A stretch of DNA of 63,720 bases, the filler included, from Bonamia ostreae (Eukaryota): NCBI GenBank assembly GCA_040357525.1. It is 51 parts of 51 records of this genome, joined end to end, with 100 filler letters (N's around TTAATTAATTAA, not from the genome) between each part and the next. Parts side by side here need not be neighbours in the genome. Positions count along the whole stretch, not along the records: positions 1,260 to 2,417 come from JBDODL010002493.1; 50 more parts are not named here. One strand, given 5' to 3'. The notes under the pieces were generated by a model. The model worked only from the letters and a program-made list of their open reading frames with translations. It searched no databases and was not told the DNA's origin. Of the stretch, positions 1,260 through 45,029 are shown in pieces. The translations under genes and the position numbers were made by a program. Positions within the stretch are counted from its first letter, which is position 1; every line of letters starts with the position of its first letter.

Positions 1260-2105
1260 CAACAAACGGTGTAGGAAAAGTCTGTGATTTTACATTAAAA
1301 GAACTTTTATCATTTGACGCTGGATACAAATACAAAAAAATAGACAAAAACGGCACTAAGATTTTTCCGTACAGGTCAATTCAATTTGTCAATAATCATT
1401 TTTCAGAAATTTGAATTTTCAATAAAAATTGAATTTAGGAACAAAGGGCTAAAAATACCTCAATTCGAAGAGGTCATTATCGCTTTAAAAAACAACAAAA
1501 ACAAATACGGTTTTCCGCTGCGATTTTATCTCGATTTCAAGTCAAAATTAATCATCAAAACAGCCCTCGATTTTATCAAAAAACAAGATTTATCACAACG
1601 CGTCATTCTCGGCGCAAATAACTATTCTGTTAACAAAGAACTGCTAAAATTTCGAGTTTGTAATTTTCAAATTTTTTGTTTGTTCTTCAAAACAATTTCG
1701 TATGTTCAAATTTAAAAATTGTTAAAACTTTTTGTAAAAGAACCCGAGAATGCCAATAAGTTGCGATTTGTGGACAGGAATTTTAGTGATAATTTTGTCA
1801 AAATTGGGGCTTTTGGATTATTACCATTTGAAACATGATATTTACGGATCTTACGAATCAGGAAATTTTATCCAATTTACAGAAAAAAGATTTATTGAAA
1901 AAATACACAAAAGAAAAAAATTTTACGGTTAATTTGCAATTTTTTACAAAAAAAAATTTATTTTAATAAAAATGGCTCTAACAATTTAGCCGTTTTTGGA
2001 GAAAAGATGGATGATTCAAATTTTATCCAAAAAATGTTCGATTCGAATGTTGACTTGTTGCTAACAAATAAACCAAAAACGATGAAAAGAATAATTGATA
2101 AATAA
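1260..2105 (+). CDS. Glycerophosphodiester phosphodiesterase (GDPD family), 5'-partial; introns 1375-1438, 1656-1740, 1928-1989
   Basis: Spliced product has TNGVGKVCDFTLKELLSFDAG...KIPQFEEV and C-terminal VDLLLTNKP, typical GDPD motifs. Confidence 0.85.
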
Positions 2106-2262: not shown

Positions 2263-2340
2263 ATGTCAGGTTTTGCACGTCAGCGGTTGATTGAAGAAAG
2301 AAAAGTTTTATTGCGTTTATGGAAGGCTTGGAGGAAAGAT
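2263..2340 (+). CDS. UBC9: SUMO E2 conjugating enzyme, N-terminus; 21-nt intron 2305-2325
   Basis: Spliced MSGFARQRLIEERKAWRKD matches the conserved Ubc9 N-terminus (RLxxERKAWRKDHP). Confidence 0.85.
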
Positions 2341-6104: not shown

Positions 6105-7274
6105 AGCGAAATATTAAATTTATTGTTAATTTTTGATCGAATCATTATTTTTTATTTTTAGATTTTTTTGTTTTTAAACTTTTTATTTTTANNNNNNNNN
6201 NNNNNNNNNNNNNNNNNNNNNNNNNNNNNNNNNNNTTAATTAATTAANNNNNNNNNNNNNNNNNNNNNNNNNNNNNNNNNNNNNNNNNNNNAAATACATT
6301 GAAAAATACCTTTGAAGATCACAATCTCTGAACAATAGGACCAAGATGACTCAGTGGAACGATGAGACCCATGGGCGTCGTGTTTTTAAACATTTTCGAC
6401 TGTTATAAAAAGTAATTGTTAAGCAATATCCATTGTTTTAGATCAGGAGTGCTACCGTTTTTTAAGCCTAGTAACAGAGAATACCTTCACAGAAATGTCT
6501 TCTGACAGGCCATATTCCACAAGAAGAACAGAGTATGTTTTGTACATAGTGCTTATCAAGAATGGTTATGTTGCGTGTACTTTTAGATACTGCATAAGTT
6601 TTCTTTCAATGCAGCAGCATATGAATTATAACAAGTAATGTTGAGAAGTCTGAAAAAGCAAAGTTATTTTTATTATGATCATAGATATATTCTAATTTCT
6701 AAGTAACTGGTGTTATTTCTTTTACTTCCAATCGTGATTCATTGCAGTGATGGATTTCTTTGTAACACTATGTTAATTATGGTTGGAACGACTGTCGCCG
6801 TTGGCTCCATCATCTTTCTTATTAAAAAAAGGAGGTACTGCAGAGAAAAATGGAATCAATGTCTTAGTTGGATATACGGTACGTTGCAGGAAAAATTTCA
6901 TATATAGGCATATATCTATAGAGTGCAATAATTGTGTTAGTTTTAATTGAGATAGGGATATCTAGTTTTTATCACAGACCAACAAGCGCAAATGCATATA
7001 GTATCAATGTATCAGTTCAAGTCTGAGCCGTCCATTTCTGTTTCTTCCAATGCTTCCACGTTGTAGTGAAAGTGTCACAAATCTAAACCCTATTATGGCG
7101 CTTAGGGCCGAAGTATGTAATGGATGTTCTCAATTTGCTCCACCTGTTGCATTATGGACCACAAAGTCTAATGTCTCATGATAAAGACCCGAAATTTGAA
7201 CTTTCTAAATATCATTCGCTTTACGAAGGGGTACCCGCACAATACTTTAGAATTTTGGGTGAGATAGGTAAAAT

Positions 7275-7345
7275 AACGAAGTATTTGACAAGGTCAAGGT
7301 ACGAATGGGACTCGAGCCCACCCCAAATATTAAAGCAAATGTTTT
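7275..7345 (-). mobile_element. Degenerate tRNA-derived SINE head (host)
   Basis: Reverse strand reads GGTGGTTCAGTGGATAA...GGGCTCGAGTCCC, A-box/B-box-like. Confidence 0.45.
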
Positions 7346-7603
7346 ATCCACTGAACCACCTCTCCATAAGTGTTTTCGTTTGTTTCCCTACAAGAAATAT
7401 TTATGTTTGGTTTTCAAACTGTCATTTTTCACCACTTGCCGCGGTAGCTNNNNNNNNNNNNNNNNNNNNNNNNNNNNNNNNNNNNNNNNNNNNTTAATTA
7501 ATTAANNNNNNNNNNNNNNNNNNNNNNNNNNNNNNNNNNNNNNNNNNNNAACCCCGAAAATACAACAAACTGCAAAGTGAGCTTTAAGATTCTTATATAA
7601 AAA

Positions 7604-8666
7604 ATGTCGAAAAATGGTGAAAGCACATTTAAAATAGTAATAGCGACAGACAACCATTTGGGTTGCTACAGCAACGACGCCATTCGTTCAGACGACTCAT
7701 TTGCCACTTTCGAAGAAGTCTTGAAACAAAGCGTTGCGGAACAAGCTGATTTTCTGCTTCTCGGAGGAGACCTTTTTCATCACAACAGACCATCGCAGCC
7801 AACAGTGCACAGATGTCTTCGTTTGCTGAAAAAGTATTGTTTGGGAAGCAGAGAAGTCGGTTTTGAAGTGGTAAGTGACCAATCTTTTAATTTTGCGGAA
7901 AAGTTTGAAAATTTTCGATTTTTTAAAGGAGAGCGAATTTTGAAGACCCAAATTTGAAAATATCGCTTCCGATTTTTTCGATTCACGGCAATCATGACGA
8001 TCCGACGGGAGTAAAATTGTAAATAATAAAAGATTGAAAATTTGTCTGTGATGGACATAATGTCGACGGCGAATTTTGTGAATTATTTTGGGAAAGCGGT
8101 CGACATTTCTAAGATCAATATTAAACCTGTTTTGATGCGAAAAGGGAGAACAAAGTTTTAATTTTTTGCGACGAATTTTTGGGATTTTTTTAAATTTTGT
8201 TTTTGCGACGAATTTTTGTTCTTTTTTTTTTTAATTTTGTTTTTGCACGAATTTTTGGGATTTTTTAAATTTTGTTTTTGCGACGAATTTTTGGTCTTTT
8301 TTTTTAATTTTGTTACAAAAAAGATTGGCTGTTTATGGCTTGGGATCCATAAAAGATGAGCGTTTACATCGTCTTTTTTTGGACAGAAAAGTAAAATTTT
8401 CTCGTCCAGCGGAAGACAAAGAAGATTGGTTTAATATCTTTGTTATTCACCAAAACAGGTTTATTGATTTATTGAAACAGGTACAAGCATTCTTTCAATA
8501 GACTCAATTACATTCCAGAAAACTTTATTCCGTCTTTTATTGATCTAGTGGTTTGGGCGCACGAACACGAATCCATTATGCAACTTAACCAAAATAACGA
8601 TTTTTATGTTGTGCAGCCTGGGAGCACCACCAGAACATCTCTTTCCAAAAATGAGTTGACGGAAAA
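7604..8666 (+). CDS. MRE11: Double-strand break repair nuclease MRE11, 3'-partial; introns 7903-7928 (26 nt), 8011-8032 (22), 8155-8323 (169), 8459-8480 (22)
   Basis: Spliced motifs [39 protein letters not shown]. Confidence 0.97.
8156..8312 (+). repeat. Intronic minisatellite, ~40-nt unit x4 (TTAATTTTGTTTTTGCGACGAATTTTTG...)
   Basis: Direct tandem copies visible inside MRE11 intron 3. Confidence 0.9.
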
Positions 8667-10064
8667 GTTTTGAAGATACTTCTAAAAACAATAAAAAAAC
8701 AAAAAATNNNNNNNNNNNNNNNNNNNNNNNNNNNNNNNNNNNNNNNNNNNNTTAATTAATTAANNNNNNNNNNNNNNNNNNNNNNNNNNNNNNNNNNNNN
8801 NNNNNNNGTTAGTTAGTTAGTTAGTTAATTTGCATAATTTGCATTGCACCATTGTAAATTTCGTGAAGCATTTATGTAACAGTTGCCTTAGACATACCAC
8901 ATCTTTCTCTCTTTTTTTTTTTTTGAAATTTGTATGCAATGTTTAATTCCAGGCTGGTCGCACGTTTTGCATCTTAAGATTCCCTACCATCTTGTTGTTA
9001 CATGGATGTGTCATTGTAAAAATCATGGCATTTTTTTAACATTTAATTTCGGCAACTATAATCTGGAGCAATTTTGAGATTGACATGATGTTTCGTCTTG
9101 GTGATTTATAACGTAAAACAGCTTTACATTCAATGATATCTTTCTTCCTGTTTATCAGGAACATACATCTAATATTCATGATTTTCTAGAATCTCATTGT
9201 TGTATTTAGTTATATGACTGGAAATGAGGAAATTATTTCCGAATTTGTTTCTAATTTTACTTTTCGCTTTGTCACCGGCAGTAAATATTGATGTTTGAGC
9301 TGATATGATATCAATATTAATCCATTTAGCATCAACCATCGTTACATTATATTTTGAACCATTGTATATAAAAAAAAAAACAACTAACAAAATAGACAAA
9401 GGGACATTCACACTGTTGCAAATATAGTAAGCTTTACTCACCGTCTGAAAACGCTTCTCTTAGGGGTAAGCCTTTGTGCGAGTGAATAAAGCTGTTTATA
9501 CCCCTCATTATAATGCATCCTCACCTTTCTTTTTGTAGACCTGTAGCTCATTTGGAGAAATGGGACAAATCACAACGCTACAGATCCACTATTATGTCAA
9601 AGGGTCCGTATTTGCCTTTCTCCCAATTTTGTTATTTTGTATGCATTGTTTAAGCAGAAATAGAAAACTCCCGATTGATGTCATAGTTTTCCACTCACGA
9701 TTGATGTCTTATATCCCGAAATAATTACACCGCCCATTAAAGGCCCATGTGAACCCAATCACAGCTTCAATTTTGTATAGTGACTTAGGTATATTACATG
9801 TAGGTAGCTATTTAAGTCGAACCTCTTTGATCACTGGTACGTACCTATTCATAATTGCGAAATTATGTACGTATTCTGTTTGCCTTTATTTATAAACATT
9901 GGTGATTGATATAATAATTCTTCTGGACGTAAAATAAGTCCTTTAGTATTGAAAAAGTATTCCTNNNNNNNNNNNNNNNNNNNNNNNNNNNNNNNNNNNN
10001 NNNNNNNNTTAATTAATTAANNNNNNNNNNNNNNNNNNNNNNNNNNNNNNNNNNNNNNNNNNNN

Positions 10065-10440
10065 CTCACCAGTTCCGTAATTATAAACAGAAAATGGATC
10101 AAATTTATCAGAGATAATTTTTCGATGACGAATTTTTTTGATTTGCTTTAAGCTATTTTTGTCCAATTTTATTGTTCGATTATTCTTTTCGTCGTCGATA
10201 ACAAAACTAAATTTACTGATAAAACTTGTTATGTTTGGCCATTTTCAATTGCTTTTTGATGTCTAGTTTTTCGATTCTTCTCTCGACTTTCTTCCCTCGG
10301 ACGTTGTAACCGATGTGATTAAAATTTTTGTACCATTCAAGAGGCACTTCGCCTATTCTCGCCAACGCGCCTTCCGTTTCCGATGAATCTGATTCTGCTC
10401 TTATGACTTGTTTTTTTGTTGCTCCATCCACGGAAACCAT
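10065..10440 (-). CDS. BOP1: Ribosome biogenesis protein BOP1/Erb1, N-terminal part; 19-nt intron 10207-10225
   Basis: DSSETE..IGEVPLEWY..HIGYNVRGKK and downstream FDPF match the BOP1 N-terminal domain. Confidence 0.9.
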
Positions 10441-10646
10441 TTTAAGCTAAATTTAGGGTTTTGTTTATAAGCGATTTGACATATAACAAATTATAACATT
10501 TTGCTTGTCGTTATAAATATCAAATAAACAAACGATTTCTTGGTATTAGCAAGAAAACTAAATTTCAAATGCATTCTTATCAACAACTTACAATATAATC
10601 CCAAAAAACATAAAATATATTCAAAAACAAAATCCGAAGAGCTATA

Positions 10647-11221
10647 ATGTTGAATAAAGTAAAAAGCGCTTTTATAAATCAAGAGAAACTGTATGAAAGC
10701 GAAATGAACAAAATTTTAATTTCCTTCGACCAAACCGATCAATGGCTCGATTTGGTCAAATCGCTAAAAAATCTTGACATTTTCTTAAAAGAGATCATCA
10801 AAATAAAGCAAAAGAACTCCCAAAAAACAATATTTTCTTTCCAACCATTTCTTAGACAAATCTTCATTTCTTTAAACAAATGTCTTGACTCTAAGATGCC
10901 CTCAGGCATTCACCAAAAAACTCTAGAAACTTACGATACATTTTTTGTAGCTTTAAATAATGAACAAATTGCCGAAAACTTGGCATTTTTTTCATTTGGA
11001 CTTTTTAATGTTCTCGAAAACGCGAGTGAACGCGTTTTGGACATGTTTTGACAATTTTTCGTTATTGCCATTTTCCAACAAAATATTTTTAATCTAACCG
11101 ACTTTAAAAATTAGCTTTTTTGAGATTTACAACAACCATTTTTTGCCCATCTCAAATGAAATTGGCTTCGCTTTAGACGGATTAATGCTATCTTTATTGC
11201 CCGGGTTGTCAGAACCCCATT
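10647..11221 (+). CDS. DOP1: Dopey/DOP1 protein, N-terminal domain; intron 11045-11114
   Basis: CLDSKMPSGIHQKTLETY..GLF..GLMLSLLPGL matches the Dopey_N motifs (CLxPxLPSGVHxKALE, LLPGL). Confidence 0.88.
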
Positions 11222-12409
11222 NNNNNNNNNNNNNNNNNNNNNNNNNNNNNNNNNNNNNNNNNNNNTTAATTAATTAANNNNNNNNNNNNNNNNNNNNNNN
11301 NNNNNNNNNNNNNNNNNNNNNATGCACTATCCGCGAAATTAGTCAGGGTTTGGCCAATAGTGTATGAGCCATGGGTGTAGTACATACAAGGCATCACGTC
11401 ATTGCTATTAACATATTAACTGTATTTGAATTAAAATAACATATCTGGTAATCTTTACATTTCAGTGGAGGTAAGGGTGATAGTTCCATCTGCACTTTTC
11501 TTATTGATTGGTGCGGATATTTCTAGTGAAATTCCGATTAGTTTGCTATTGTATAGGAGTATAATTATTACAAATGAATGACAACTCATCAACATATTTT
11601 TTTTTTCATTATGGCAGTTATGCTAGTGGTGAACAACATGTATATACAATTTTTACCCAAACAATTCATACCCGACTCTTGTATAACTGCGGTGGTGTAA
11701 TGAATAACCCGGGCTCAATCTGCCAATGATCAATTTTTTTTAAAATAAACGGATTTAGTTGTAAATATGAAAAATTTTAAGAAAACAAAAATGTAAAGTT
11801 ACACAACAATTGCGATTATGGGCATTAACATATAATCGTGCAAGATGCTAAAATAGATACAAATTAACAAGGATCATGATATAGTAATATGTCACATTGG
11901 AATCAACTTCTGAACACAACTTCTGAACACTTAATACATATAAGGTGATTTGGTTGGGATTAACTCAACCAGTGTATTTTTACATGTATAGATGTATCAA
12001 TACCAGTCATATACATGTAGAATGAGACAAATCTATAACAGACACATAAAAGAAGAATAAAATATAACAGACACATACAATCAGAAAATTTTGAAGTTCT
12101 CGGGGAGTGTACGGGCAGCTGAATGAACACCTTGCAGTATTTTATTCGTATATTCATTTAACGCGGGAAATATAACGTATTTAGTCTATATAGTGCATTG
12201 TGATGGCGCATAATTCACTCGTATCTTTCATCATCATATTCATAATAAAGCTTAACAACATACAGAATGTACGCAGATCTCACAACCCGCAAATGCTTTA
12301 CATGATGAGATCAAAATAACGGCGCTCAGGGTGAGGCGAAGAATGTCTTCGTGATAGTACTCTAACTTTCATTGTTTATTTGAACAATTATTTCTTATCC
12401 ACTTATCTA

Positions 12410-12477
12410 CCGTGAGGATCTGAGTCAGAATAGGACCTTAGTATCCCCTACATGTCATAAGAGGCGACTAAATGGAC
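12410..12477 (+). mobile_element. Mollusc Meta/MESC-domain SINE fragment (host)
   Basis: CGTGAGGATC..AGAATAGGACC..TAAGAGGCGACTAAAT core; a related copy lies on the opposite strand at ~13200-13320. Confidence 0.7.
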
Positions 12478-16345: not shown

Positions 16346-17501
16346 ATCAAAAATATTTTTTCCTGGAAAAATTTGTTTGATAAGACTGACAGGGACAAAG
16401 AAGCGCTTACTGCTAGTTTTATCTACAATTGCGATTTTTATTAGAAAAAATTGCAAATTTACAAAATTTAAATTCGCAAAAACATTAAAATACCAAAGCC
16501 AATTTTCCAAAAATCTTTTGTTTTTGGAAAAAATAGGAATGCACAAACAAATTGGAACCGAAAGAATGTCCAATAAAGCCAATAATTCCTTCGAAACAAA
16601 TTTGCGATCGACCGAATAAGAGTTTAATAAAAACATATTTGGCGCAAACGGTGCAACAGAAGTTAGCGCTATAAAAACGATTTGGCGAATATTGCTATTC
16701 GAAATCATTGTTACAATGGAAGAGTAAGCCTCCTTTGTCGAATGATCTTTTTCTTTTTCTATTTTTTAATTGTTGCAAAAATGCGTAAAGTTTACAACAA
16801 AGCGAAATCGTTCTTGCAACAAATCTTTGTTGCAAAAATAAGTAAATCCTTTCAAAAAGACCGTTTTTATAAGGCGATTCAGCGACAAAAAACAAAATCC
16901 AAAAATTCAGGAAAATGGCAAAAAAGCCCACAAACAAACAGAAACCGCCCACTGTCACCGGTTTGAAACTTGTCAGAGACGAAAATTTGTCTGAAGTAAG
17001 TAGAATTACAGCGTTGTATCCAATGGCGTTTCCTAGGTTGAGACCGGCAGTCTGGCATGTTGACACAAGGTGGTTTATCTCTCCCGGTAACAGTTGCAGT
17101 CCCCAAGCGTCGAGAGCTATATCTTGCGTCGAAGTGCAGACGAACAACAACATAAAAATTGACGTTAGAATCGCGATTTCGTTCTGATTAATGAGCGCTT
17201 CGATTAAACTAAATTCGCTTTTTTGGTTTTCGCGCATAAAAAAATGGGCCGGCGTGCCGAGTGCGATAAACGCAATGGCTGTTACAAACTGGGTCGGCAG
17301 AATCCAAGATCTTCGCCGCCCAATCTTCTTCCAGAAAATTGAATCTACTAATGGCGACCACAAAAGCTTTAAACTATAAGGATAATATGTAGTGGAAAAA
17401 ATCGCTATGTCTTTGTAGCTACTTTTTGCAGAAAGGAGAAGGAGCACCATTAAATTTGAAAATCCCTTTAAATGGCGGGTTGAAAATGGGAGGAAAACTT
17501 G
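16346..17501 (-). CDS. Acetyl-CoA transporter 1 / AmpG-like MFS permease, partial; intron ~16757-16862
   Basis: YPYSLKLLWSPLVDS..GRRRSWILPTQ..STQDIALDAW..STCQTAG are SLC33A1/AT-1 signature motifs. Confidence 0.92.
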
Positions 17502-18939: not shown

Positions 18940-19849
18940 TTTATTCCGAATTGACCACAGAAAGAACTTTTGACAGAAAAAGTGGCAACTGGAAAATATC
19001 GAATTCAATTCTTTTTATCAAATTATTAAAATTTAGTTTATGACAAACTTGTGTTTCAGTTCATCGGGTAAAACATTCGCCGGATCAACAAGACGCAGTG
19101 GCTCAAAATTAGCTTTGTTTGTTGACAAATCTATTTTCATTTCGAATTCCAACACTTTTAAAAATTTAAAAATTTGCTTTTCGTTAAAAAAATATTTAAA
19201 ATTTAGCTTTTTATAAATTTTGGTTTTTAAGAAAATTGGAAACTTTTTGTATTTTTGTAATTAACAGATTTACATCGAAAATGTCGAATCGATTCATTTT
19301 CAAAATATTTTTCAATTTCTTCAATTTTCATTCCGCACATCAAAGTAAAACATTCGCACAGTTTTTCAAAATTTTTAAACTTTTTGCCATTTTGATTTTT
19401 TTCTGTTTCTTTATAGTTAATTTTTTTTAAAATTTGACTAATTTTTAATTTTCGACAAATTTTTAAATTACGAAAATTTGACTAATTTTTAATTATTTAA
19501 ATTTTGATTTTTTTAAAATTTTTTTTTATTTTTAACTGTTCTTCAAATCTGAAATTTGTTCCATTAATTCGTTTTCTCTTTTTTCATATTTTCTGACTAA
19601 TTTTTTACAAAATTTTAAAATTTAGCCAAAACTGAGATAATCTTTGTCTTCACATTGAATTTTTAAATTATTTCTTTCGTTTATCAAAATTTCTTGTTGT
19701 TTTTCAGTTTCTTTCGTTTCTTCTCGGTTGTACTCGAGACTAACGCCGACTGCCATCAACTTCTTTTCGTATTGCCGAACGCGATTTTCCATTTTTAGCG
19801 CCTCTTTGTTCCAATGCGCTACTTCGTCCAACATTTCTTTTTTTAACAA
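18940..19849 (-). CDS. Multi-exon coiled-coil hypothetical protein (protist); boundaries approximate
   Basis: Heptad-rich exon 19622-19849 plus short downstream exons separated by AT-rich GT-AG introns. Confidence 0.45.
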
Positions 19850-19854
19850 TTTTT

Positions 19855-20011
19855 TGATTTTAATGTCAATTTTTTTCGACCGATTTTAATAAATTTTTTG
19901 TTTTTAATGTCAATTTTTTCGACCGATTTTAATAAATTTTTTGTTTTTAATGTCGTTTTTTTCGACCGATTTTAATAAATTTTTTGTTTTTAATGTCGTT
20001 TTTTTCGACCG
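19855..20011. repeat. ~45-nt tandem repeat x3-4 (TTTTAATGTC..TTTTCGACCGATTTTAATAAATTTTTTG)
   Basis: Near-identical direct copies up to the contig end. Confidence 0.9.
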
Positions 20012-21366: not shown

Positions 21367-22455
21367 CTTATTCTCTTTCAGCATTTTGAGTGCGTGCTCC
21401 AAATGGTGCCGGAACAACTCCTCGTTGTTCCAAACCTGCTGGAAAGCTGCGTTGTCCATCTCCAGGAACATCCCCGTTATCTTCGGAGCGTGCTCCGGCG
21501 ACACCTGGTTCACCCGCGCGAAGATCATGTCTCCCCGGTGCGACTCGTCCGGCGCCGCCCGCTCCACCTGCTGCTCCGCCGCCCTCGGAACCGCCCCCAC
21601 CATCGCCTGCTGCCTCCCTCCCACCGCCATCTGCGGCACCCGCGCGCCTCCCCACCTCGAAGGCCCTCCTCCGTACATGTAGCCCTGCGCCAGCTGCTGC
21701 GGGTAGATCAGCGGCGCCGCCGACTGGTACATCCCCGCGCCGAACTGCGGCGGCGCCTGCATGAACTTGCGGTTGCTCTGCGCCTGCATCTCCAACTGCT
21801 GCTTGCGCACGTGCTTGCGCTGCCAGAAGGCCACGAAGAGCACCTTCCCGACCCACATCTTCCCGTGCAGCGCCTTGATCCCGCTCGCCGCGTCCTCCTT
21901 CGTCGCGTACAGCACGAAGCCGAAGCCCTTCGAGACGCCGCGTTCGTCCATCCGCACCTTCGCGGAGACGACCTGCCCGTACTTGGAGAACTCCTCGCGG
22001 AGGAGATCGTCATCGACGCTCTCGGGGAGGTTCTTGACGTAGACGTTGCGCCCGGCGGTGTTCGTGTCCATCTCCTCGCGCCACTTCAGGTACTGCTGGT
22101 GCAGCTTGTTGCGGCGCATCGACTTGCTCAGCGCTTTTGCGACGTAGAGCTTCTCGGGATCTTTTTCGTGGAGCTCTTCGATGACGCGCTTGGAGACGAG
22201 CGGGTCCTTGAAGTTCACGAAGCCGAAGCCGGCGGGGACGGAGTCGTGCACGGGGAAGTGGACGCTGGTCACCTCGCCGTGTTTCTGGAAGAAGGCGAGG
22301 AAGGCGGCTTCGTCGGGGAAGAGGCTCGCGTTGAAGTTTTTGACGTAGACGTTTGTGAACTTGGGCTCGCCGGTGTTGCGGGAGCCGCTCGGTTTGAAGG
22401 GGCAGACTTCGACGACCCTCGAGGCGATTTCCATGTTGTTCACTTTTTCTATCGC
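21367..22455 (-). CDS. PABPC: Polyadenylate-binding protein (RRM3, RRM4, linker, MLLE), partial, GC-rich exon
   Basis: FTNVYVKNF, GRNVYVKNLPESVDD, SKGFGFV and MLLE motif APKITGMFLEMD; acceptor ...AATCGAAAG at 22456. Confidence 0.96.
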
Positions 22456-25108
22456 CTTTCGATTATTGGATTTGTTCGAAAAAAATTTGATAAAAATAAT
22501 TTTTGATCGATTTATTGACANNNNNNNNNNNNNNNNNNNNNNNNNNNNNNNNNNNNNNNNNNNNTTAATTAATTAANNNNNNNNNNNNNNNNNNNNNNNN
22601 NNNNNNNNNNNNNNNNNNNNAAATAATGAGTCAAACATCGGATCATGTTTAAATAGCAATGCCAATAAAACTTCCTTATGAACAGGAAGACGAAACACCA
22701 GAGACGTGGTGCTCAACGTATGTTATTTAAATATTTATATATATTATGATTTTCTTCTTTGTATTTTCTATTTTCAAGAATTTTAGGACTGATGTTATAG
22801 CATACACATGTACTTTTCTTCTGAATGATATTTACTCCAGGAAAAATAATGGTCCAAGGATATATTTCTTCCCAAAGAATACTGAATCGAGATTGAAATT
22901 TCTTCCTAGAAAACATCCCCAGTATAATATATGTCCCTAAAGGACAGTACTTAACCCCCATCCCCAATCTAGCAATTATCTAGTTTTGATCCATGCAGTT
23001 CGTCAAATTTATTCATAGATGGAGATTACTATAGTAATCAATGTAGGCTATAGTAGATCTAACTTAAATCAAGTTTTTATTGATCAATACGTCTGTCTGA
23101 AACTTTAACCTCTCATTGCCTTTGCTCATAACATTTGAATGGAGCGCGAAAGGGCNNNNNNNNNNTACATTCCTTGTGGCAAGACCTTTTATTATTTTAT
23201 AGTTTGACCCACTTCTTAAAAAAAAGAATCTTACCAATTGCGAGGCAATATACCGTGTGGTATTTAAAGTAATGATTTCATATTTTGTACATGCTTGTAT
23301 ATGCAGATTATTCATGGCACAACTTTTTATTTCATCCTTGACCCTGCATTGAGTTGAACTCAATTTTTCAAACTTTAACCTTGCCCATACCCTTTGAATG
23401 GTCTTACATTTCTTGTGACAAGACAGTTCTTTCAGAACAAAAGTATTTTTTTTTATCTTGTAGCATTTATCGAAGAGATTAACCTATTTTTAAGAAAATC
23501 TAAAATAATCTAGACAATATCTTCTGCACAACTTTAGGATATACTTCTCATATTGTGTTTATTGAGCTATTATGGCAAGACCCCCCCCCCCCTTTTATGG
23601 ATATCATGATCTTTAACCTTAATTAATTAATTAACTTTGGTCCAAATTCCAGAACTTTAACATTGCTTATAATTTCGTGTGAGACTCATCGTCGTAACGA
23701 AGTGTGATACTTTACCATGCAACTTCTCATTAAATTATGTTTTTGTCTTTTGCCTTTTAATAATTATTCCAATANNNNNNNNNNNNNNNNNNNNNNNNNN
23801 NNNNNNNNNNNNNNNNNNTTAATTAATTAANNNNNNNNNNNNNNNNNNNNNNNNNNNNNNNNNNNNNNNNNNNNAAAATATATGTGTGACATTTTGGGAC
23901 GTTTATATGAAAATACAGTCTGCTCTTTCCTTGATGGACCTTTCACGTTATCTTTCACTTCACCCTTACCACATAACATCGGGGTACAAATGCCACCTAG
24001 TAATGAATGATAAAGGCTTGGCATCGATGTAAATTGAGAACACAACTGGGCACACGAGGTAATTAAAAAGTGCTTTATTATAACACCAAAAGTGACAATG
24101 AAGCATTGGTTTTAAGCTGTGATCCGATAGGTTAGTACTAAGTTTCATACCTGATGTCGATCTAAACAGTTATTAGATTGCTCTAGTAATTCCAAAGGTT
24201 TACTACAAACTGGTTCGAACTCAATGAAGATCATGCAGTTCTAAAGAAAATTCAAGGGAAATTGACTCCTGATTTAAGAACCGTCAAATGTGTAGACTGG
24301 ATCATAAATTGCCACGGAAAGACACCACATTGTATCTGCTGTATGAGGTTTAGTATTGTCATTATTATGCATAATATTGTAAGAAATGTATCAAATTGTT
24401 GTGTTTGATAACATGCATCGACAAAACACAATATGCACAAACTAAAAATATGAAGTATGGCCACCACGTCAAATAGCGCGTGCTCTGACTCTATGATGTC
24501 ACAGAATATTATGTTTTTACACAGATGTTAAAGTGTCTTGAAAATTGTCCAGAAAGTTTGGTATCATTTTAATCACATGTCCCTGCCAGTCTAAATACTT
24601 AGCTGAAGTAAAAATAAGACATAGATTATGTTGCATTGCAATTTAGTGTTAAACAATAGAATGTGAAGTTTGCATGTTCATGCAAGTATGTAATAGTGAC
24701 ATAATTTACTTGTCATACAATGCTAATTCTTTTCAAAAACAGTTTTAGTGAGTTTGAGATATTTACAAATAGCTTGTCTAGACAAGGAAGTCAGAGAACA
24801 TTTGAAATTCATTGGCTTAAAACCAGCAAATCGTTGGACATATAAGTCGGTGTTCTTTATATGTCAGTTTGAAAACAAAACGTATACGATCAATTGCAAA
24901 TCATGTGAAAAGAAATTCTTATCTAAACATTACCTATAACAAAGATACATTGTATATCGTTTTATAGAACCCAAACAATTCAACTGAAAAGCAAACTCTA
25001 AGTGTTGAATTGCTATATCCCAAATATANNNNNNNNNNNNNNNNNNNNNNNNNNNNNNNNNNNNNNNNNNNNTTAATTAATTAANNNNNNNNNNNNNNNN
25101 NNNNNNNN

Positions 25109-28886: not shown

Positions 28887-30034
28887 TATATTCGCCCGGA
28901 AGCACTCTCGCCAGCACAATTTTAAAGGTTTGTGCTTTTTTATCCGTTTTCGCAAAATTGTGCGAATACTTCGGATTTATGCTAAAGTAAGCTCCTTTTC
29001 CCAATCTCGTTGCGTTTTTGCCGTTCAGTCGAATATCAAAGCCTTGGTTCGATATTCCTTCTATCGACAAATGATCTGCTCCGTGATATAACAAATATTC
29101 GTTAAGTGATTTTTGGTTTAGCAAACTTTCTTTAATTTCCTTTTTTTGAAAAATTTTGTTTTTGACATATTTTATTTAAAAAGATGTTTTTAAATTTTAA
29201 AATAATCGTTAAATTTAAAAAAAAAACTTGTAACATTGTTTGATATTTTGTCAAAAATAGGATTGCCAAAAGTTTGTTTTGAACTCTTGTAATCGATTTT
29301 ATTCTCGAATTTGTAAAATTGTCTAAAAATTAATTTCAAGATCGCAAAAAAATCGCAAAATTGAAAAAAATTAAATTTCAAAATAAATTGCTAAATTGAA
29401 AAAAAGAAAATTTAAAAAGACGTCGAAATTTTTGGCTAATTTTTTGATGTTCTTCCGACATAAAATTTGTCTCATAAAAAGAAATGTTCGATTTTTGATA
29501 TTTCCAATTTGTTAATATCCATTCCAAAAACGATTCTTTAATCTAAAATGTTCAAAAATTACATTGTTTTCGTGTTTTTGCATAATCTCTCTTTTAATAA
29601 ATCGTTTAAATCCCGTTTTTGTGTTTTTCTGGCAAAAAAGTATTTCATTTTTTGATTTAATTGGATAAAGCTCTATTAAATAGTCCAAATTGTTTTCAAA
29701 GAAGCCTTTTGTCGGACGAAAAGCCAAAACTGAATTACCTTTAAAATAGTTTTCAATTTCTTTGCTAGCTTCCACATCAAATCGTTCCCATTTGTTTTTG
29801 TTGTCTAATTTTTTCGAATTTAGTTTTTATTTGGAAAATTTAGCTTTTGACAAATTTAGTTTTTTGACCTTTATATAACCAAACGGCATTTGCAAAACTT
29901 AAATTTTGACTATTTTCAATTTTTTTAAAAGACTCAAAAATCATTTTGTCTGTTAATCTAAAATGGCTTTCTTGTGTTAATCCAAGAAATTTAGACAATT
30001 TACTTTTTATTTTATAAAAATTTTTATCCGCCAT
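28887..30034 (-). CDS. WWE-domain + PARP catalytic domain ADP-ribosyltransferase, 3'-partial; four introns including 20-nt 29543-29562
   Basis: Spliced VWLYKDNKNKWERFDVEASKEIE..QKNTKTGFKRFIKR (WWE), then ITRVQN..LLYHG..GFD..LGKGAYF..LARVLPG (PARP). Confidence 0.9.
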
Positions 30035-31389: not shown

Positions 31390-31560
31390 TTTTTGAAATT
31401 GTTAATTTTTGTTTTTGTAAAACTTTTGTTTTTTGAAATTATTAATTTTTGTTTTTGTAAAACTTTTGTTTTTTGAAATTGTTAATTTTTGTTTTTGTAA
31501 AACTTTTGTTTTTTGAAATTGTTAATTTTTGTTTTTGTAAAACTTTTGTTTTTTGAAATT
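31390..31560. repeat. Intronic ~40-nt tandem repeat x4 (TTTTGAAATTGTTAATTTTTGTTTTTGTAAAACTTTTGTT)
   Basis: Near-perfect direct copies at the contig end. Confidence 0.92.
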
Positions 31561-31586
31561 ATTACAAAAGTTAAAAGAAACAAAAC

Positions 31587-35150: not shown

Positions 35151-36260
35151 AAAGACAAGTTCGTTCAATAATGGACCAAATAAGACCCGATCGACAAAGT
35201 TACCAAATCCAAACTTTTTAGCAATGATGTTCAGCGCCACTTTCCCGCGGGAAATACAACTTTTGGCCAACGAAAACTTGGAAAACCACATCAAAATAAT
35301 CGTCGGCCGAATCGGAGCGGTTTGACAAAATGATTTTAAGGCCAATACGAACATTCGACAAGTCGTCGAAGTGCTTTTGAACGAAGATTTGAAAATGGAA
35401 TGGCTTAAAATTCGCCTCAAAAAATTTATTGATTTCGGTCCTGTGCTCATTTTTGTGTCGAAGATAAAAGATTGCGAAGAGCTGACGAGCAAAATCAGGA
35501 AAATGAAAATTCCGTGTAAAAAATTGATTCCAAAAAATTAATTTTGAAAAGACCAAATTTTCGACCAAAATTTTCGATAATAAAAAGGCGGTTTGATTCA
35601 CGGCGATTTTGACCAACGAAAAAGAGAAGAAGTTCTGAAAAAATTTTCCACCGGAAATTGTAAATTGTTGGTCGCGACCGATGTTGCTGGTTTCGCCGAA
35701 TAAGAATTTTTACCAAAAATAAAATTTTGCTTTCATAAAAATTTGAGAAAATTAAAATTAAAAAATTAAAAATTAAAAATTTGGTAAAAAATTAAAATTT
35801 TCTTTTTCATAAAAAGCGAGAGGATTGCATATCGACAATTTAAAGACGGTCGTCAATTTTGACGCACCACGCAACTTGGAAACTCACATTAATCGGGTTG
35901 GGCGAACCGGCAGAGCAGGAAAGAACGGGATCGCTTACACTTTGTTGACCCCAAACAACAAAAAAGAAGCTTCTTTCATCAAAGCGAATTTGATCCAATC
36001 GAAACAACCGGTCAATTCGCAATTGGAAAATTTGATCAAAGACGTTTTTATTTTTGGATTAAATCGCAAAAATTAAATGTCAAATATACAATTTGAAGAA
36101 AAATGTTTCAGAAACGACAAATTTGAAGAAAGGAATGCAATTTACAAAAGAGAGCAGCAATAAAAATTTTAGGAAACGGAAAGCGGTGACATTTGAAAAA
36201 AGTAGTTTAAGCAAATCTGCTTTTTCAAAGGGATTTATAAAATCGAACGGAAATAAATAA
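35151..36260 (+). CDS. DEAD-box RNA helicase, DDX42-like, 5'-partial; five introns including 35199-35221 (23 nt) and 35320-35340 (21 nt)
   Basis: [51 protein letters not shown]. Confidence 0.88.
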
Positions 36261-36389: not shown

Positions 36390-36685
36390 GATCAAAATAT
36401 ATCAAATTTGTTTTTTAAGATCTGGAAATTCAATTTTTTATAAAAAAATAACGGAGTAAATGGTATTGCGATAGTTGCTAGCATGAGAAGAGAATGCATT
36501 TTCTCCTGAGACGCGTTTTCTTTGAGTGAATCCGACGATTGAAGGCGTTTTTCGATTGGAATAATCGTTTGTTGCGATATTTATTCCGCATTTTTTGGCG
36601 ACTCCGATGATCGAATTGTTGCTTCCAAAGTCAATTCCAGCGACTCCTACGTTCTTTATTTAAAGTAAATTTGATTTGGAACCAT
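36390..36685 (-). CDS. Hsp110/SSE-type Hsp70-family chaperone, N-terminus; ATG-only first exon, intron 36654-36682
   Basis: Spliced MNVGVAGIDFGSNNSIIGVAKKCGINIATNDYSNRKTPSIVGF; absent from the ORF track. Confidence 0.88.
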
Positions 36686-36860
36686 TAAATTTGCGGTGCG
36701 AAAGTTTTTACGAAACTATATGGTTGGTTGTTGACATTAAATATTTAGATTATAAAATTGAGCAATTTTTTAAATTTTGATAAAATTTTGTCATCGTTGA
36801 AAACATAATAATAGAAAAGCTTTTTGATTTTGATAAAGGTTTTATCAATTTTAATATCCG

Positions 36861-37049
36861 ATGGATTTCCTCGACAATGAAGAAACGGTCTACAGAATCA
36901 AAATTTTCAGAAGAAGTTTGTGTGTGCTTAAGGAAAACATCAAATTGGAATCAAACTGTTTAACAACGGAAGAATCGTTAGATATTCTAAAAAAGATTTT
37001 GCTAAAATTGGATAAATTTATTGTCAGTCTGTTTAGTCCTCCGATTTGA
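36861..37049 (+). CDS. 62-aa hypothetical protein
   Basis: Short ORF between the Hsp110 and TTI1 genes, with protist-like codon usage. Confidence 0.4.
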   Translation: MDFLDNEETVYRIKIFRRSLCVLKENIKLESNCLTTEESLDILKKILLKLDKFIVSLFSPPI

Positions 37050-37222
37050 TAAATTTTATTTTGTCAAATTTTATTTGATCGTTATTTTGCAATTTTTGTA
37101 ATATTTGATCGTTTTTTGTTTAAATTGCGAAAATTGACATTTTTAACTTTATTTAAATCGACCTTTTGTCGTTTTTTTGTTTATTTAAATTGCGAAAAAT
37201 AAAAAAAGGAATAATAAAAACA

Positions 37223-37490
37223 CTAAAATTTATCCAAATTGTCGATTATCTGTAAAACTTTGTTGATATTTTCCAAAAACAACGTTTTTTCACTAAAGTT
37301 CAATTTGTTTTTGTGAATAGTTAAAACATACCAAACACAATCAGAATCAATTTGAGCCAAATTTGAGTAAATTTTAAAAATCGTTTCCGTCATTTCCTTA
37401 TAAAATTTTTTTGTCAAAAATTTTGTGCATTCAACGCTTATTTCTTTTATTTTGTTCTTTATCACGTCTTTATCGTATTTTAGCAATTTG
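37223..37490 (-). CDS. TTI1: TELO2-interacting protein 1, last exon
   Basis: CTKFLTKK..LAQIDSDCVWYVL..FLENINKVL matches the TTI1 C-terminal LxxxDxDxxWxxL motif. Confidence 0.65.
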
Positions 37491-38905
37491 GTCAGATTTT
37501 TTATTATTAAATTTAAAAGTGTCTAAATAAATTGTAAACNNNNNNNNNNNNNNNNNNNNNNNNNNNNNNNNNNNNNNNNNNNNTTAATTAATTAANNNNN
37601 NNNNNNNNNNNNNNNNNNNNNNNNNNNNNNNNNNNNNNNTAAACTGATATCGCATAGAAAATGAAAATGCTCAAAGTTCTTGGTCATCAGATGAACAATG
37701 ACATTGATCTAATAATATTGATCTACGCCAGCTAGGCATTTGATTTATTTGTCATGAGTATTTCCCATTGTTTACATATTTATATATATGTTATAAAAAT
37801 CGTATTATTACATTTCTTTTTAGACCAATTGGAAAGAGAGAGAAGGGACTTTCAAGGTTTGTTAATATAAAACAGAATGTGATGCCAAATAATGATGAAT
37901 TCTAATGTATTATATCTCCACAATCGGTATTTTTACTTTTTATCTTTCCCAGTTCAAATTACAACAACAAAAATGAAATAGAAGTTTTCAAATGCTAATA
38001 TATTTTACTAAAATATATTTTGCTAAAAAGCTGAAATATTATGAAATAAAGTCGAAAGTACATCCATTTTGTGCATATTTTCAGGTTGTTGATTGTCCGA
38101 AACAAGAAATATACAAAATACTGAATATTCATAAAATAATAGATGCAGATTAGATACTACATTGTACGTCATGCTATTTTCAGATAACCTTCGAAGAACA
38201 AACGAAAAGTACGGTAAGTACAAAATGTGTGTAGGTCAGTGTCATCAATAAACTGGTTCCCCGTTATTGATCTTTTTTTTAAAGTGTCATCATTAGATTG
38301 GCTCCTTTTATTGATGTTTTGAAAGAAAAGGTATACCGTCATAGTGTAAAATGTTTGAATATGTACATTACTGATCTTCCATCAATATTCAGTTAGACAA
38401 CCATTTTAGTAAGGAATTGGAAGCTTAGAATTATGACCAATTCCAAGACTGGCATGTGTAACGGGGAGATGAGTCGGTGAATGATTCGCAGCAGAGTAGG
38501 ATTACAACTTGGAGCCTCTCATTCTCTACGCCAAATGTTTTTTCACCTTCGATACCAGTCCACCGGCGAGGTAGACTATCTGACTGCTACGTTCCACTTC
38601 CCTCCCATCAAAAGTCAGATCGTCCCTGATCAATCCGTTATTTTCTTGACGAGACAAGTCTGGAACACGAATTTGGGCCCTTTGAATCTATAAACAAGTC
38701 CTATTTCTATACACATATAAGTCAAGGTCAGTTACATTTCTTTTCATACAAATGAGAATTTAAGAAACCCAAAACCAACATGTTTTAAANNNNNNNNNNN
38801 NNNNNNNNNNNNNNNNNNNNNNNNNNNNNNNNNTTAATTAATTAANNNNNNNNNNNNNNNNNNNNNNNNNNNNNNNNNNNNNNNNNNNNAGATACAGTGC
38901 AGAGT

Positions 38906-39802
38906 TTACTCCGCCTCGTTTCCGTTTACAGCATTCTCCTTCTCGTTTTCGCCTCCCCCGCGCCGGTTTCTCCTGCGGCCGCGGCCTCGACGCCCTCTCC
39001 CTCCTCGGAAGCGGCTGGACCCAAACAGCATCGACTTCGGCGCCGCGACTGCCATGAGAGTCTTGTCGTTCACCTTCGCGCCGTTGATGTTGGCGATCGC
39101 CTTTTCGGCCATTTTCGGGTTTTTGTAGGCGACGATGGCGTGATCCTTCGAGAACCGGAAGGAAACGACCTCCCCGTTGCCTTCTGCCTGCTTCCGGATG
39201 GATTCCTTCGGCACAGAGGCGTCATAGTTGGCGATCATCACCGCGTTTCGGAGAGGAGCGCCGGTCGACCGGAATCTCGGCGTGAATCGCTTCGGCCGAG
39301 ACTGTTCCACAACGGCCTTCTCGCCTTCGAGCTCGACTCCTTCTTCCGCGGCCTTCTCCGCGGAGGAGACATCTTCGAACTTGATGAAGGCGTAGGGCTT
39401 GTTGTCTTTCGCGGGGCTGCGCAGCAAGATGACTTCGTCGATGGTCCCATATTTCTCGAAAGCTTTGCGCAGGTTCTCCTCCGTGACTTCATCGCCGAAC
39501 TCCGCCACGTACACTTTGCGCTTGGATTCCTCCGCGCGAATCTGTCGAATCGACTTTTTGTAATCGGCGACAGTGCAGCTCTTTCCCTGCAGCTTCTGCT
39601 CGATAACAGCTTTCTCCGAGTTTTTCTTGTTTTCGTCTTCGTAGGTGAGGATGCAGAAGTTGGCGCCCTGAATGACTGCGTCTTCTTTGTAGTCGGCGAC
39701 GAGAGCCAAAAGGTCGTCTTTCGTGTCCTCGCCGAACCGGATGTAGATGCTCCTCTCCTCGCTGGGCTCTATTTTCTTGCTTTTGGTTTCGCTGTCTGAC
39801 AT
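38906..39802 (-). CDS. Multi-RRM RNA-binding protein with C-terminal RGG tail (nucleolin/Gbp2-like), intronless, GC-rich
   Basis: RNP motifs KVYVAEF..KPYAFIKF; three RRM-like units; FRGGRGRRGRGRR tail. Confidence 0.85.
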   Translation of the reverse strand: MSDSETKSKKIEPSEERSIYIRFGEDTKDDLLALVADYKEDAVIQGANFCILTYEDENKKNSEKAVIEQKLQGKSCTVADYKKSIRQIRAEESKRKVYVAEFGDEVTEENLRKAFEKYGTIDEVILLRSPAKDNKPYAFIKFEDVSSAEKAAEEGVELEGEKAVVEQSRPKRFTPRFRSTGAPLRNAVMIANYDASVPKESIRKQAEGNGEVVSFRFSKDHAIVAYKNPKMAEKAIANINGAKVNDKTLMAVAAPKSMLFGSSRFRGGRGRRGRGRRRNRRGGGENEKENAVNGNEAE

Positions 39803-40138
39803 TTCTGTCTAGTGGTATTCCGTTGCCTGTTTAGCTTATTATTTAAATTTTAGCTTTCGGTATATGGGACAGAGTTAACGAAAGTGTTTCTAAATTGGAG
39901 TTAGGTTAGCAATAAACAGTTTTTGCTTTATCTTGTTTTCACGTTTATCGGGATCGAGTAAGTTTTGGGTTTGTTCGTTCGATTTTTAACTTTCTAAATC
40001 TTGGGACTTATTATTTTTTTTTAACAATTTTGGAATTNNNNNNNNNNNNNNNNNNNNNNNNNNNNNNNNNNNNNNNNNNNNTTAATTAATTAANNNNNNN
40101 NNNNNNNNNNNNNNNNNNNNNNNNNNNNNNNNNNNNNG

Positions 40139-41385: not shown

Positions 41386-42208
41386 ACAGTCGACGTTCAT
41401 ATGAATGCCCCCAGTTTTTCGTTCACAACTGATGGAATAACCGCGCCAAATTCTGATGTCCGGACAACCTCGCTCGCGGATATCAAAAAGTCCTTTTCCC
41501 GAAAACAACGATTCGTTTCGTTCAAAATAATTTTGACCGATTCTTACGAGATCTGATCCTCTGATCACTTTGTTGAGCATCAAATGGATAATTTGTTCGT
41601 GTTGGTTCTTTTTTGGTCGTTTTTAGTAAAAAAATTGGTCGATTTGATAAAATTGTCCCGCGAAGAACAACGTCGAAAATGTCTAAAAACAATATGTTGA
41701 GAAGTGAGATCATTGAGATCGATCGATTTCAAATATTTTACTGTGATTGTTTGAGTGAGGTCTTCGTTGGTAAACTGATTTTCGGCCTCCTTTTTGCGCA
41801 AACACAACAAATGTTTGTTTTCGAAGAAATAAGGGCCGTACGTGTTGATAATTTTGTCGCGAACGCTTTTGCTGTTTTTATTAAATTAGTTTTATTAAAT
41901 TTTATCCAATTTGGATAAATGTTTATCGCAATTGAAGTAAGCGAAAACTTGTTTATGGCGCTTAGACGTTGGTCCTTGGCATCTTCGGGGATATCCGGAG
42001 TGAACTCGATCAAATGCAAATGGATTTGGTCAAGCGGTGTTCTCACAACGAAAGAATTTGTGATGACAGTAACTTCTTTGCCAATTTTGCCTTTTTGGGG
42101 GCGTTTGGCAACCAAGGCGAGTTTTTCGTCGATGATCGGTTGTTTTTCCTTTTCGTCGACCTTTTTTGGCGCATCCTTGGTTTTAACAGGAGAGTCGTTT
42201 TTCTTCAT
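41386..42208 (-). CDS. Piwi/Argonaute-family protein, N-terminal half; introns 41872-41948 and 41608-41690
   Basis: KRPQKGKIGKEVTVITNSF..HLIEFTPDI (ArgoN) and LVRIGQNYF..IRIWRGYSIS..GIHMNVD (linker 1). Confidence 0.88.
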
Positions 42209-42715
42209 TCTTTTTAGGCGCGTTTTTGCTAATATTTAGGTTTGAAGAATAATGTTAATACTATTTAGGTAATTTGATATGTTTTAGTTTAGTGAAATTT
42301 AGGAAATTTTTGTTTATTTTGGATGTCTAATTAATGCTTTTAAGAAATTTGGAAATTGTGGTGCAAAATTTCGATAAAGCCACAAAATTTTAGTAAAGTG
42401 AGTTTTCTTAACAAGAATTTTTAATTATTAAAGCAATTTTCATTCAATAATTTTTATTCTTTTGATTCGAAATCAGAATCTAAAATGGTTATTGTCAAAC
42501 CAATGGCTAGACATAATGTAATTTATAAATAATNNNNNNNNNNNNNNNNNNNNNNNNNNNNNNNNNNNNNNNNNNNNTTAATTAATTAANNNNNNNNNNN
42601 NNNNNNNNNNNNNNNNNNNNNNNNNNNNNNNNNTTTGGTCAATAAAACGACAAAAAATGACAAAAATGTCGTAAAAAAATTTATGTAAATACAATTTGAA
42701 AAATGTTAATGTCGT

Positions 42716-43881: not shown

Positions 43882-45029
43882 TGCTTTGATTGCCAAAAAA
43901 TTTTGCGCAGATCAGTTTAATCAATGGCTTCGAGTCCAAATTCAATTCTTTTCTTTTTAAAGTTATCCCCAAATTTTCCAAGAACAAGGACATTGTTTCG
44001 CCTTTAAATAAATTTTAATCATTTTTTTAATATTTTATAAATTGGAAGAGTAATTTTTACTGTTTTTAAACTTTTCGGTTCGTTGCTAATTGCGACGGAA
44101 TAGATTTTGTAAAGCGGTTCTAGAACAAACTCGACGAAAGATCTTTTCGAATTTGAATTTGGCGGTGTGTTGTGGAATTTTCCTTTCGAGAAGTATTTGT
44201 TTCCCCAAAGTTTTGATGCAAATTTTTTTGCTTCTAAACCTTCTTGACATTTAATTTTTGCGTCAAAAACAAATTAAAGAATATCAAAATTTTTTGAGAA
44301 CAACAAATTATCGAAAATTATCAAATTTTGTTCTTCGCATCAAAAACAATTTTATTGAACAACAAATTTTGATCAAAACAAATTATCGAAAAATTGCAAT
44401 AAACCATTTCGATCTTGATATTTTCTGGACAGAGAATCTAAAGTAAAACTCCAACCAAAAAGAGCGCTTGAAAAACAAACATTTCCTCTTTCCGGAGAAA
44501 TTTGAGCGGGATATTTAAGATTCGTCAAAAGATCGTTAATCTCTTTGAAAATGCCAAACAATTTATGGTAGCTGTCTTTCGGCGGCAATTTTAATTCCAA
44601 AATTAATCTGTCCATTTTTGTCATTACAACAACTATTGGAACCCCATTTTCGACTAATTTATGTTTAAATTTTAGCAAATTAATTTTATTTTCCAATATA
44701 GAATGGCTAAATTTTATTTTTCGACAAATTTGTTTTCAATTTTTTTAGCCAAATCAAAATTTTAAAATTTTGTCAAATAAACTTGAATGTTTGATTGAAC
44801 GAATAGTTTGTTTCATTACGCCTTCAACGACGTCAATAAAAATGACAGCGCCGTCACTTATTCGAAGAGCAGCTGTTTGCTCATCAGAAAAGTTGACGTG
44901 TCCGGGAGTATCCATTATGTTCAACAGAAAAGATTTTTCTTTTCCAAAACCGGTTTCCAAAATTAGCGAGATTGGAGATGATTTTATGCTCAATCCTCGT
45001 TCCTGTTCATCTTTTCCAACATCCTTTAT
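43882..45029 (-). CDS. EFTUD2: U5 snRNP GTPase Snu114/EFTUD2, internal part with three introns
   Basis: [59 protein letters not shown]. Confidence 0.96.

Follow-up and report, generated by a model that had tools for sequence, protein, structure and literature searches.

The window analysed here, the whole stretch of 63,720 nt taken from the Bonamia ostreae assembly GCA_040357525.1, carries at positions 1260-2417 (record JBDODL010002493.1) part of a protein-coding gene with three introns, and in the region 1375-1740 the first two of these introns contain inverted repeats through which each could fold back on itself. B. ostreae is a haplosporidian (Ascetosporea, Rhizaria) that parasitises the flat oyster. 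The window is not one molecule but 51 scaffolds of 1145-1159 nt each, sorted by length and joined by linkers of the form N44-TTAATTAATTAA-N44, so that neighbouring 'genes' in it are unlinked. Support from RNA consists of contigs of two RNA runs (X1 and X2), one of them labelled 'mollusc metagenome', and concerns scaffold 1260-2417 only. The spliced four-exon model of the gene is letter-identical to P0001 (210 amino acids, NCBI 'hypothetical protein MHBO_003775, partial [Bonamia ostreae]'). Fold stability is given below as the minimum free energy (MFE) and as its z-score (z) against 200 dinucleotide shuffles of each intron. The features of the gene are the following.

1262-1374, plus strand: exon 1, whose coding sequence enters from the scaffold edge; RNA contig piece 1260-1372, cut +2; identical to P0001.
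1375-1438, plus strand: intron 1, 64 nt, GT..AG, 19% GC; RNA joint in X1; MFE -6.5 kcal/mol, z -0.32.
1378-1387, plus strand: 5' arm of a perfect 10-nt inverted repeat, AATTCAATTT, from the repeat search.
1426-1435, plus strand: 3' arm of the same repeat, AAATTGAATT, from the repeat search.
1378-1430, plus strand: two direct copies of a nearly self-complementary A/T word, 23 nt, 74% identical, 30 nt apart.
1439-1655, plus strand: exon 2, from RNA contigs and the model identical to P0001.
1656-1740, plus strand: intron 2, 85 nt, GT..AG; RNA joint; MFE -5.8 kcal/mol, z +0.52.
1662-1674 and 1708-1720, plus strand: imperfect inverted repeat in intron 2, 13 nt, 92%, the best one there.
1741-1927, plus strand: exon 3, from RNA contigs and the model identical to P0001.
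1928-1989, plus strand: intron 3, 62 nt, GT..AG; joint in X1 and X2; z +0.09.
1990-2105, plus strand: last exon, with a TAA stop at 2103-2105; RNA contigs, P0001.

All three introns are skipped in the RNA contigs and have the GT..AG ends of U2-type GT-AG introns, and a poly(A) tail begins near 2116, where an RNA contig ends in a loose A12. At exon positions 1480, 1508 and 1514, the spliced contig of X1 departs from the window sequence, and run X1 therefore comes from a different strain or allele. The name GDPD, under which the host gene had been described, does not hold, as P0001 taken whole scores 13 bits (E 0.11) against Pfam PF03009, whose cut-off is 23.6; a Pfam search with single exons gave no match, nor did a PDB search with exon 2. 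We regard the protein as weakly GDPD-like.

Our preferred reading, to which we give a probability of roughly one half, is that region 1375-1740 comprises two ordinary U2-type GT-AG introns of a B. ostreae protein-coding gene, and that their repeats are weak, A/U-only pairings arising as a by-product of the way this AT-rich DNA is built. The inverted repeats would stem mainly from the make-up of the non-coding DNA, which in this reading combines a GC content of 10-24%, A-runs alternating with T-runs, an abundance of nearly self-complementary words of the AATT..AATT type, and frequent short tandem duplications. Introns that tend to start T-rich (GTTT...) and to end A-rich (...AAAG or TTTAG) would most likely be identified by their splice-site signals and spliced out with no need of a fold, and folding would be a by-product that at most nudges the intron ends together. 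That splicing does not involve the fold is our inference. Taken individually, the stems are what AT-rich, run-structured, locally duplicated DNA yields by chance.

The introns of the focal gene were compared with others in the window, predicted by a gene finder built on a codon score, on GT..AG ends and on a term for AT composition. This finder recovered the three RNA-confirmed introns exactly; a version without the AT-composition term called excess introns, and the final version still overruns gene ends. Several predictions were dropped by judgement before counting, namely 2049-2244, 10447-10529, the 255-nt intron of 13834, 19837-19923, 31423-31543, three introns on 36390-37539, three on 47624-48770, 50788-50877, 53157-53220, 54151-54403 and 62835-62864. 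In the curated set, 24 introns are long (49-169 nt) and 17 are tiny (19-38 nt), and a candidate of 21 nt in a UBC9-like gene, read by eye, was added to the latter; with 24 long introns against 18 tiny ones, the long introns are not rare exceptions here. Half of the long introns (12/24) have support from RNA, NCBI proteins or homology, including 11045-11114, 35690-35816 and 44654-44782, across each of which the Pfam profile coordinates continue; the other 12 were called by the gene finder alone.

In intron 1, the repeat search agrees with the preliminary description of this DNA, which had placed a perfect 10-nt inverted repeat 3 nt inside either end. The arms of this repeat sit inside the two 23-nt direct copies, and because the repeated A/T word is nearly self-complementary, the direct repeat doubles as an inverted one; intron 1 as a whole can be read as two copies, each of about 30 nt, of this word. 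A 10-bp terminal repeat is rare among shuffles of this intron (P 0.003, 1000 shuffles), but six of 552 non-cognate pairings of intron ends (1.1%) also show a 10-bp match, and one such case among 24 introns is therefore unremarkable. Over the 24 introns, the perfect terminal repeat averages 6.04 bp for cognate ends vs 5.66 bp for non-cognate ends (permutation P 0.066), and the duplex energies of cognate and non-cognate ends are alike (P 0.22). For intron 2, which had been described as pairing its first 19 nt with a segment just upstream of the acceptor, those 19 nt do pair, with nt 53-73, but the pairing is imperfect and leaves 12 nt free before the acceptor. The last 22 nt of intron 3 are without pairing in its MFE fold.

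A perfect repeat just inside both splice sites also recalls introners, which derive from transposons and carry both terminal inverted repeats and target-site duplications (Gozashti et al. 2022, PMC9860276), and the longer introns might descend from such small mobile elements, or from miniature inverted-repeat transposable elements (MITEs), their end-pairing being a relic. Families with inverted ends are indeed known elsewhere, 72 of 177 according to the same article (PMC9860276). Unlike introners, however, the Bonamia introns form no multi-copy family in the window, where a BLAST search with the 24 introns returned 94 non-self hits, all of them A/T words and the longest 26 nt at 92%; the absence of a family is weak evidence, because only about 64 kb of the genome was searched. 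No target-site duplication was found at intron 1, whose repeat arms are flanked by GTC and TAG, the arms themselves are low-complexity A/T words, and the stems in other introns lie asymmetrically about the ends. We consider this origin, which the preliminary description had offered as its alternative, improbable.

The test that bears most directly on the folds is their stability, and the 24 long introns have no excess of it. Their mean z is -0.45 and their median -0.15, with values below -2 in three of the 24; at 20 C the corresponding figures are -0.56, -0.36 and again three of 24, and the fold tool's own z-scores, obtained for 22 of the 24, agree. Intergenic DNA forms hairpins at an equal rate, since 61 windows of 85 nt from the same scaffolds have a mean z of -0.29 and a median of -0.09, with 8/61 below -2. 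The only outliers among the introns are 41872-41948 (-4.20), 29323-29421 (-2.92) and the 115-nt version of an intron in the AT-1 gene (-2.64), and all three are local hairpins rather than end-to-end stems. Against natural windows matched for length and GC content (23 of the 24 introns assessable), the MFE ranks at 0.44 (P 0.35) and the MFE-based distance between the intron ends at 0.40 (P 0.13); against shuffles, this distance is equal (25.0 vs 26.4, mean rank 0.46). Intron length and z are unrelated (Spearman rho -0.22, P 0.30), and the sense strand is more stable than the antisense strand in just five of the 24. The MFE folds pair the GU of the 5' splice site in 11 of the 24, and in these the stem would hinder rather than help recognition.

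As single MFE structures carry just 0.1-17% of the ensemble, sampled structures were also used, the measure being the shortest path from the first to the last base, averaged over Boltzmann-sampled structures at 20 C. Here we observe a weak positive signal, which weighs against our preferred reading. Real introns are more closed than their dinucleotide shuffles (14.9 vs 17.6, mean rank 0.36, P 0.026), than shuffles of the interior only (rank 0.37, P 0.031), than chimeras carrying the last 12 nt of another intron (rank 0.33, P 0.013) and than versions with rotated interiors (rank 0.33, P 0.008). Swaps of the last 8, 12 or 16 nt or of the first 12 nt give permutation P values of 0.004-0.02 at 20 C, and the end-swap effect is also seen at 37 C (permutation P 0.048). 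The effect persists when the comparison is limited to the 18 introns that the preliminary description had left unnamed (permutation P 0.035) or to the 12 with the best support (P 0.022). Intergenic DNA lacks it, both as 35 windows (ranks 0.46 and 0.48) and as GT..AG pseudo-introns (rank 0.54 for the swap, 0.47-0.53 for the rotation), and introns and pseudo-introns differ at P 0.01-0.06. Such a difference between introns and intergenic DNA is not obviously predicted by a pure by-product model.

The signal is nevertheless small, about 2.5 path units of 17, and the effective distance of shuffled, swapped or rotated versions is almost as short (~17 vs ~14.5). The end-closing tests draw on a single set of 24 introns and are mutually dependent, they were run after several negative tests, and the window was itself flagged since stems had been noticed there. 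With composition-matched donor ends, the signal falls to rank 0.41 (P 0.25; 14 of the 24 introns assessable), and therefore T-rich starts and A-rich ends whose purity co-varies among introns may account for part of it. On the antisense strand, it has the same sign and is weaker (rank 0.45, permutation P 0.07), as repeats at the DNA level would give, which is a point in favour of the mobile-element origin considered above. What remains is an intron-specific tendency of the ends to match, faint and unexplained.

This tendency speaks for structure-assisted splicing, in its weak form: a spliceosome tuned to introns of about 20 nt, and longer introns selected or filtered so that their ends pair and bring the splice sites together. 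The shortening of the sampled end distance is cognate- and intron-specific, with null intergenic controls. Expected terminal base pairs likewise number 2.95 for cognate vs 1.97 for swapped ends (permutation P 0.031, Wilcoxon P 0.30), and 11 of the 24 introns have at least 3 of them. The concept is, moreover, established in yeast, in the 'zipper stem' introns of the RPS17B/RP51B type, where pairing shortens the distance from the 5' splice site to the branch point (Rogic et al. 2008, PMC2536676). As in those introns, complementary segments lie near both ends of a longer-than-typical intron, and the path length computed here is of the same kind. According to the yeast study, the stems lie between splice site and branch point and leave both free, and their effect on splicing was shown by mutants (PMC2536676); the Bonamia stems, predicted from sequence, differ in being A/U-only, no stabler than shuffles and often inclusive of the GU. 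Another 11 of the 24 introns have fewer than 0.5 expected terminal pairs, and the signal loses significance with composition-matched donors and in tests of MFE structures or perfect repeats. Considering also the lack of excess stability, of a relation to length and of a preference for the sense strand, the small effect, and the many related tests on 24 introns of a window flagged for its stems, we regard structure-assisted splicing as a tentative alternative and rather unlikely.

The preliminary description had gone further, claiming that longer introns are tolerated only if folding restores an effective length of ~20-25 nt. It had itself named as decisive whether folding is stronger than in composition-matched shuffles and whether stem content is related to length, and the claim is not supported and on both counts refuted; the 11 introns with fewer than 0.5 expected terminal pairs contradict the 'only if'. 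From the structural idea as a whole, the parts concerning stability and length fall away, whereas the sampled ends are slightly closer than in several controls (P 0.004-0.05). A bolder version would make this a genome-wide rule in B. ostreae, by which introns above ~45 nt have matched ends and the folded RNA presents a short span to the spliceosome, either through the survival of self-closing expansions of tiny introns or through selection on pairing; we hold it to be unlikely, and slightly more doubtful than the weak form.

Other introns for which pairing had been described, and the introns of the MRE11 gene, are as follows.

2305-2325, plus strand: candidate intron, 21 nt and in frame, in a UBC9-like gene starting at 2263, read by eye; MFE 0.
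7903-7928, plus strand: MRE11 intron, 26 nt; flanking exons correspond to residues 29-122 and 129-154 of human MRE11; MFE -2.8 kcal/mol, z -0.87.
8011-8032, plus strand: MRE11 intron, 22 nt; flanking exons correspond to residues 129-154 and 158-194 of human MRE11; MFE 0.
8155-8323, plus strand: MRE11 intron, 169 nt; flanking exons correspond to residues 158-194 and 197-239; z +0.86.
16747-16861, minus strand: intron of the AT-1 (acetyl-CoA transporter) gene, 115-nt version; z -2.64.
41608-41690, minus strand: intron of the Argonaute gene, 83 nt, from mapping of P0002 and P0003; z -0.37.
41872-41948, minus strand: intron of the Argonaute gene, 77 nt, from P0002 and P0003; z -4.20, with 0/200 shuffles folding equally well.
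57682-57730, plus strand: predicted 49-nt intron, from the gene finder only; z +0.02.

The two Argonaute-gene introns are defined by P0002 (NCBI 'argonaute 5, partial [Bonamia ostreae]', for scaffold 41386-42533) and by P0003, a collinear homolog of 703 amino acids with PAZ and Piwi domains, which attests a relative that is about 80% identical. The stems described for them, GTTTTTAG/CTAAAAAC in 41608-41690 and TTTATCCAA/TTGGATAAA in 41872-41948, are both seen in the folds. In the first intron, an 8-bp stem joins the 5' splice site to nt 65-72, and in the second the strong hairpin is local and does not bridge the intron ends. The hairpin described for the AT-1 intron is likewise present, but the intron boundary is ambiguous, since the reading frame fits a 52-nt version (16747-16798) equally well. 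Matches to the upstream exon of AT-1 extend as far as residue 213 (Pfam Acatn) and residue 202 (PDB), and the downstream exon is without a homolog. The stem pairing reported for 57682-57730 is there too, with 26 of its 49 nt paired; a protein search with the gene of this scaffold, at 57595, gave no match, and its five predicted introns come from the gene finder alone.

An Argonaute gene in this genome also raises the possibility that folded introns host small RNAs, either mirtron-like hairpins for the Argonaute pathway or box C/D small nucleolar RNAs (snoRNAs) with terminal stems. In mirtrons and Argonaute-bound short introns, a hairpin of about 60 nt takes up the entire intron and ends at the splice sites; intron 1 of the focal gene, with its 64 nt and paired ends, resembles them in size and in having the splice sites at the ends of the fold. 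Unlike mirtrons, the Bonamia introns have no long continuous stem; theirs consist of 8-10 A/U pairs that enclose large loops, in contrast to precursor hairpins of 20-30 bp. Rfam gave no match at gathering score anywhere in the window, on the focal scaffold no relevant one appeared even at E up to 1, and a TGATGA C box is found in none of the 24 long introns. We consider a small-RNA role very improbable.

The tiny introns had also been said to pair end to end, among them those of MRE11 (26 nt), UBC9 (21 nt) and eIF2-alpha. This does not stand: at 37 C the MFE is 0 in 11 of the 17 tiny introns, none clearly beats its shuffles (lowest P 0.04), the 26-nt MRE11 intron reaches a z of -0.87, and the UBC9-like candidate has an MFE of 0. 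The gene starting at 2263 is one that we take to be UBC9-like from a comparison by eye with the UBC9 N-terminus. The eIF2-alpha tiny intron was not located, as the exon aligns without a 7-residue insertion and the sole candidate upstream is a 20-nt GT..AG stretch.

Introns of 19-27 nt nevertheless form a very short class in the window (7903-7928, 8011-8032, 10207-10225, 35320-35340 and others), in which the 26-nt and 22-nt introns of MRE11 are backed by the contiguous alignment of their exons to human MRE11. The published draft genome of B. ostreae (12.24 Mb in 9,705 scaffolds, N50 1,417 bp, 33.3% GC) is described as having about two introns per mRNA and 'canonical introns' (PMC11069148), and the 19-27-nt class may be under-described or under-annotated. 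In the literature on intron folding or lengths in Bonamia or haplosporidians, this statement is the only one we found, and the supplements of the genome report (PMC11069148) may hold a table of intron lengths. Within Ascetosporea, the mikrocytid relatives are reported to have only introns of 16-17 nt (PMC10245619). The very short introns of B. ostreae, a member of the same parasite class, with homology support for those of MRE11, resemble these, but mikrocytid introns are described as uniform and conserved in sequence (PMC10245619), whereas those of Bonamia span 19-169 nt with no sharp cut-off, the long ones being rich in repeats.

Tandem-repeat arrays with periods of 7-75 nt overlap 12 of the 24 long introns (e.g. 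8163-8314, 19424-19531, 29345-29418 and 35748-35797), and the 169-nt MRE11 intron is made of such repeats, two copies of a 75-nt unit (Tandem Repeats Finder (TRF) array 8163-8314). This overlap points to an expansion of long introns through A/T-rich units duplicated locally, as in intergenic DNA. Intergenic tandem-repeat stretches are found, for example, at 19841-20011, 31390-31564 and 54188-54416. A 19-nt word, of the form TTTTGGCTAAATTTTAAAA or its complement, is identical in two unrelated introns (at 19613-19631 and 58407-58425), and shorter words like GCTAAATTT recur in further introns and spacers; words of the TTTTGGCTAAATTTTAAAA/GCTAAATTT type may represent a dispersed micro-repeat or else a signal, for instance a branch site. 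At 48886-49860, most of one scaffold is taken up by a satellite of about 1 kb, which has about 61 copies of a 16-nt unit, GTTTAGTTGTCTGTCT, and is strongly skewed in both GC and AT.

Genes elsewhere in the window are closely packed in places. At 10065-11221, a BOP1-like gene (minus strand) and a Dopey-like gene (plus strand) diverge from a common spacer of about 170 nt, and on scaffold 36390-37539 a TTI1-like gene ends and an HSP70 gene begins; the genes are tightly spaced at both places. A class-II DAHP synthase gene of the shikimate pathway lies on an AT-rich scaffold at 47626-48648 (plus strand), is broken by long, repeat-rich non-coding stretches, and leaves about 44 profile positions unaccounted for between two matched exons. 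Most scaffolds have a GC content of 24-36% and bear intron-containing eukaryotic genes, and the NCBI proteins matching the AT-rich scaffolds are labelled Bonamia ostreae. Several scaffolds seem non-coding, with 33-36% GC and no long open reading frames (e.g. 6292-7449, 8808-9964 and 11322-12477), and these may be host DNA. Two are GC-rich, 21367-22520 (61% GC) and 38890-40037 (51% GC), and encode RRM proteins without introns, one of them PABP-like with an MLLE domain; unlike the AT-rich scaffolds, these two are probably from another organism in the sample.

The main value of these results at present is a caution, as DNA this rich in A and T gives neat inverted repeats and end-to-end pairings by chance, and tests of MFE structures only can disagree with tests of sampled structures. 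If the matching of intron ends is real, it would be a new instance of yeast-type structural shortening rather than a new kind of mechanism. If it holds genome-wide, the yeast concept of a structural intron length would come to cover a protist lineage heading towards ultra-short introns, and a simple sequence rule could improve the gene models of poorly annotated shellfish parasites. A true rule of matched ends would make B. ostreae a natural experiment, showing how long introns are handled by a spliceosome that is adapted to very short ones.

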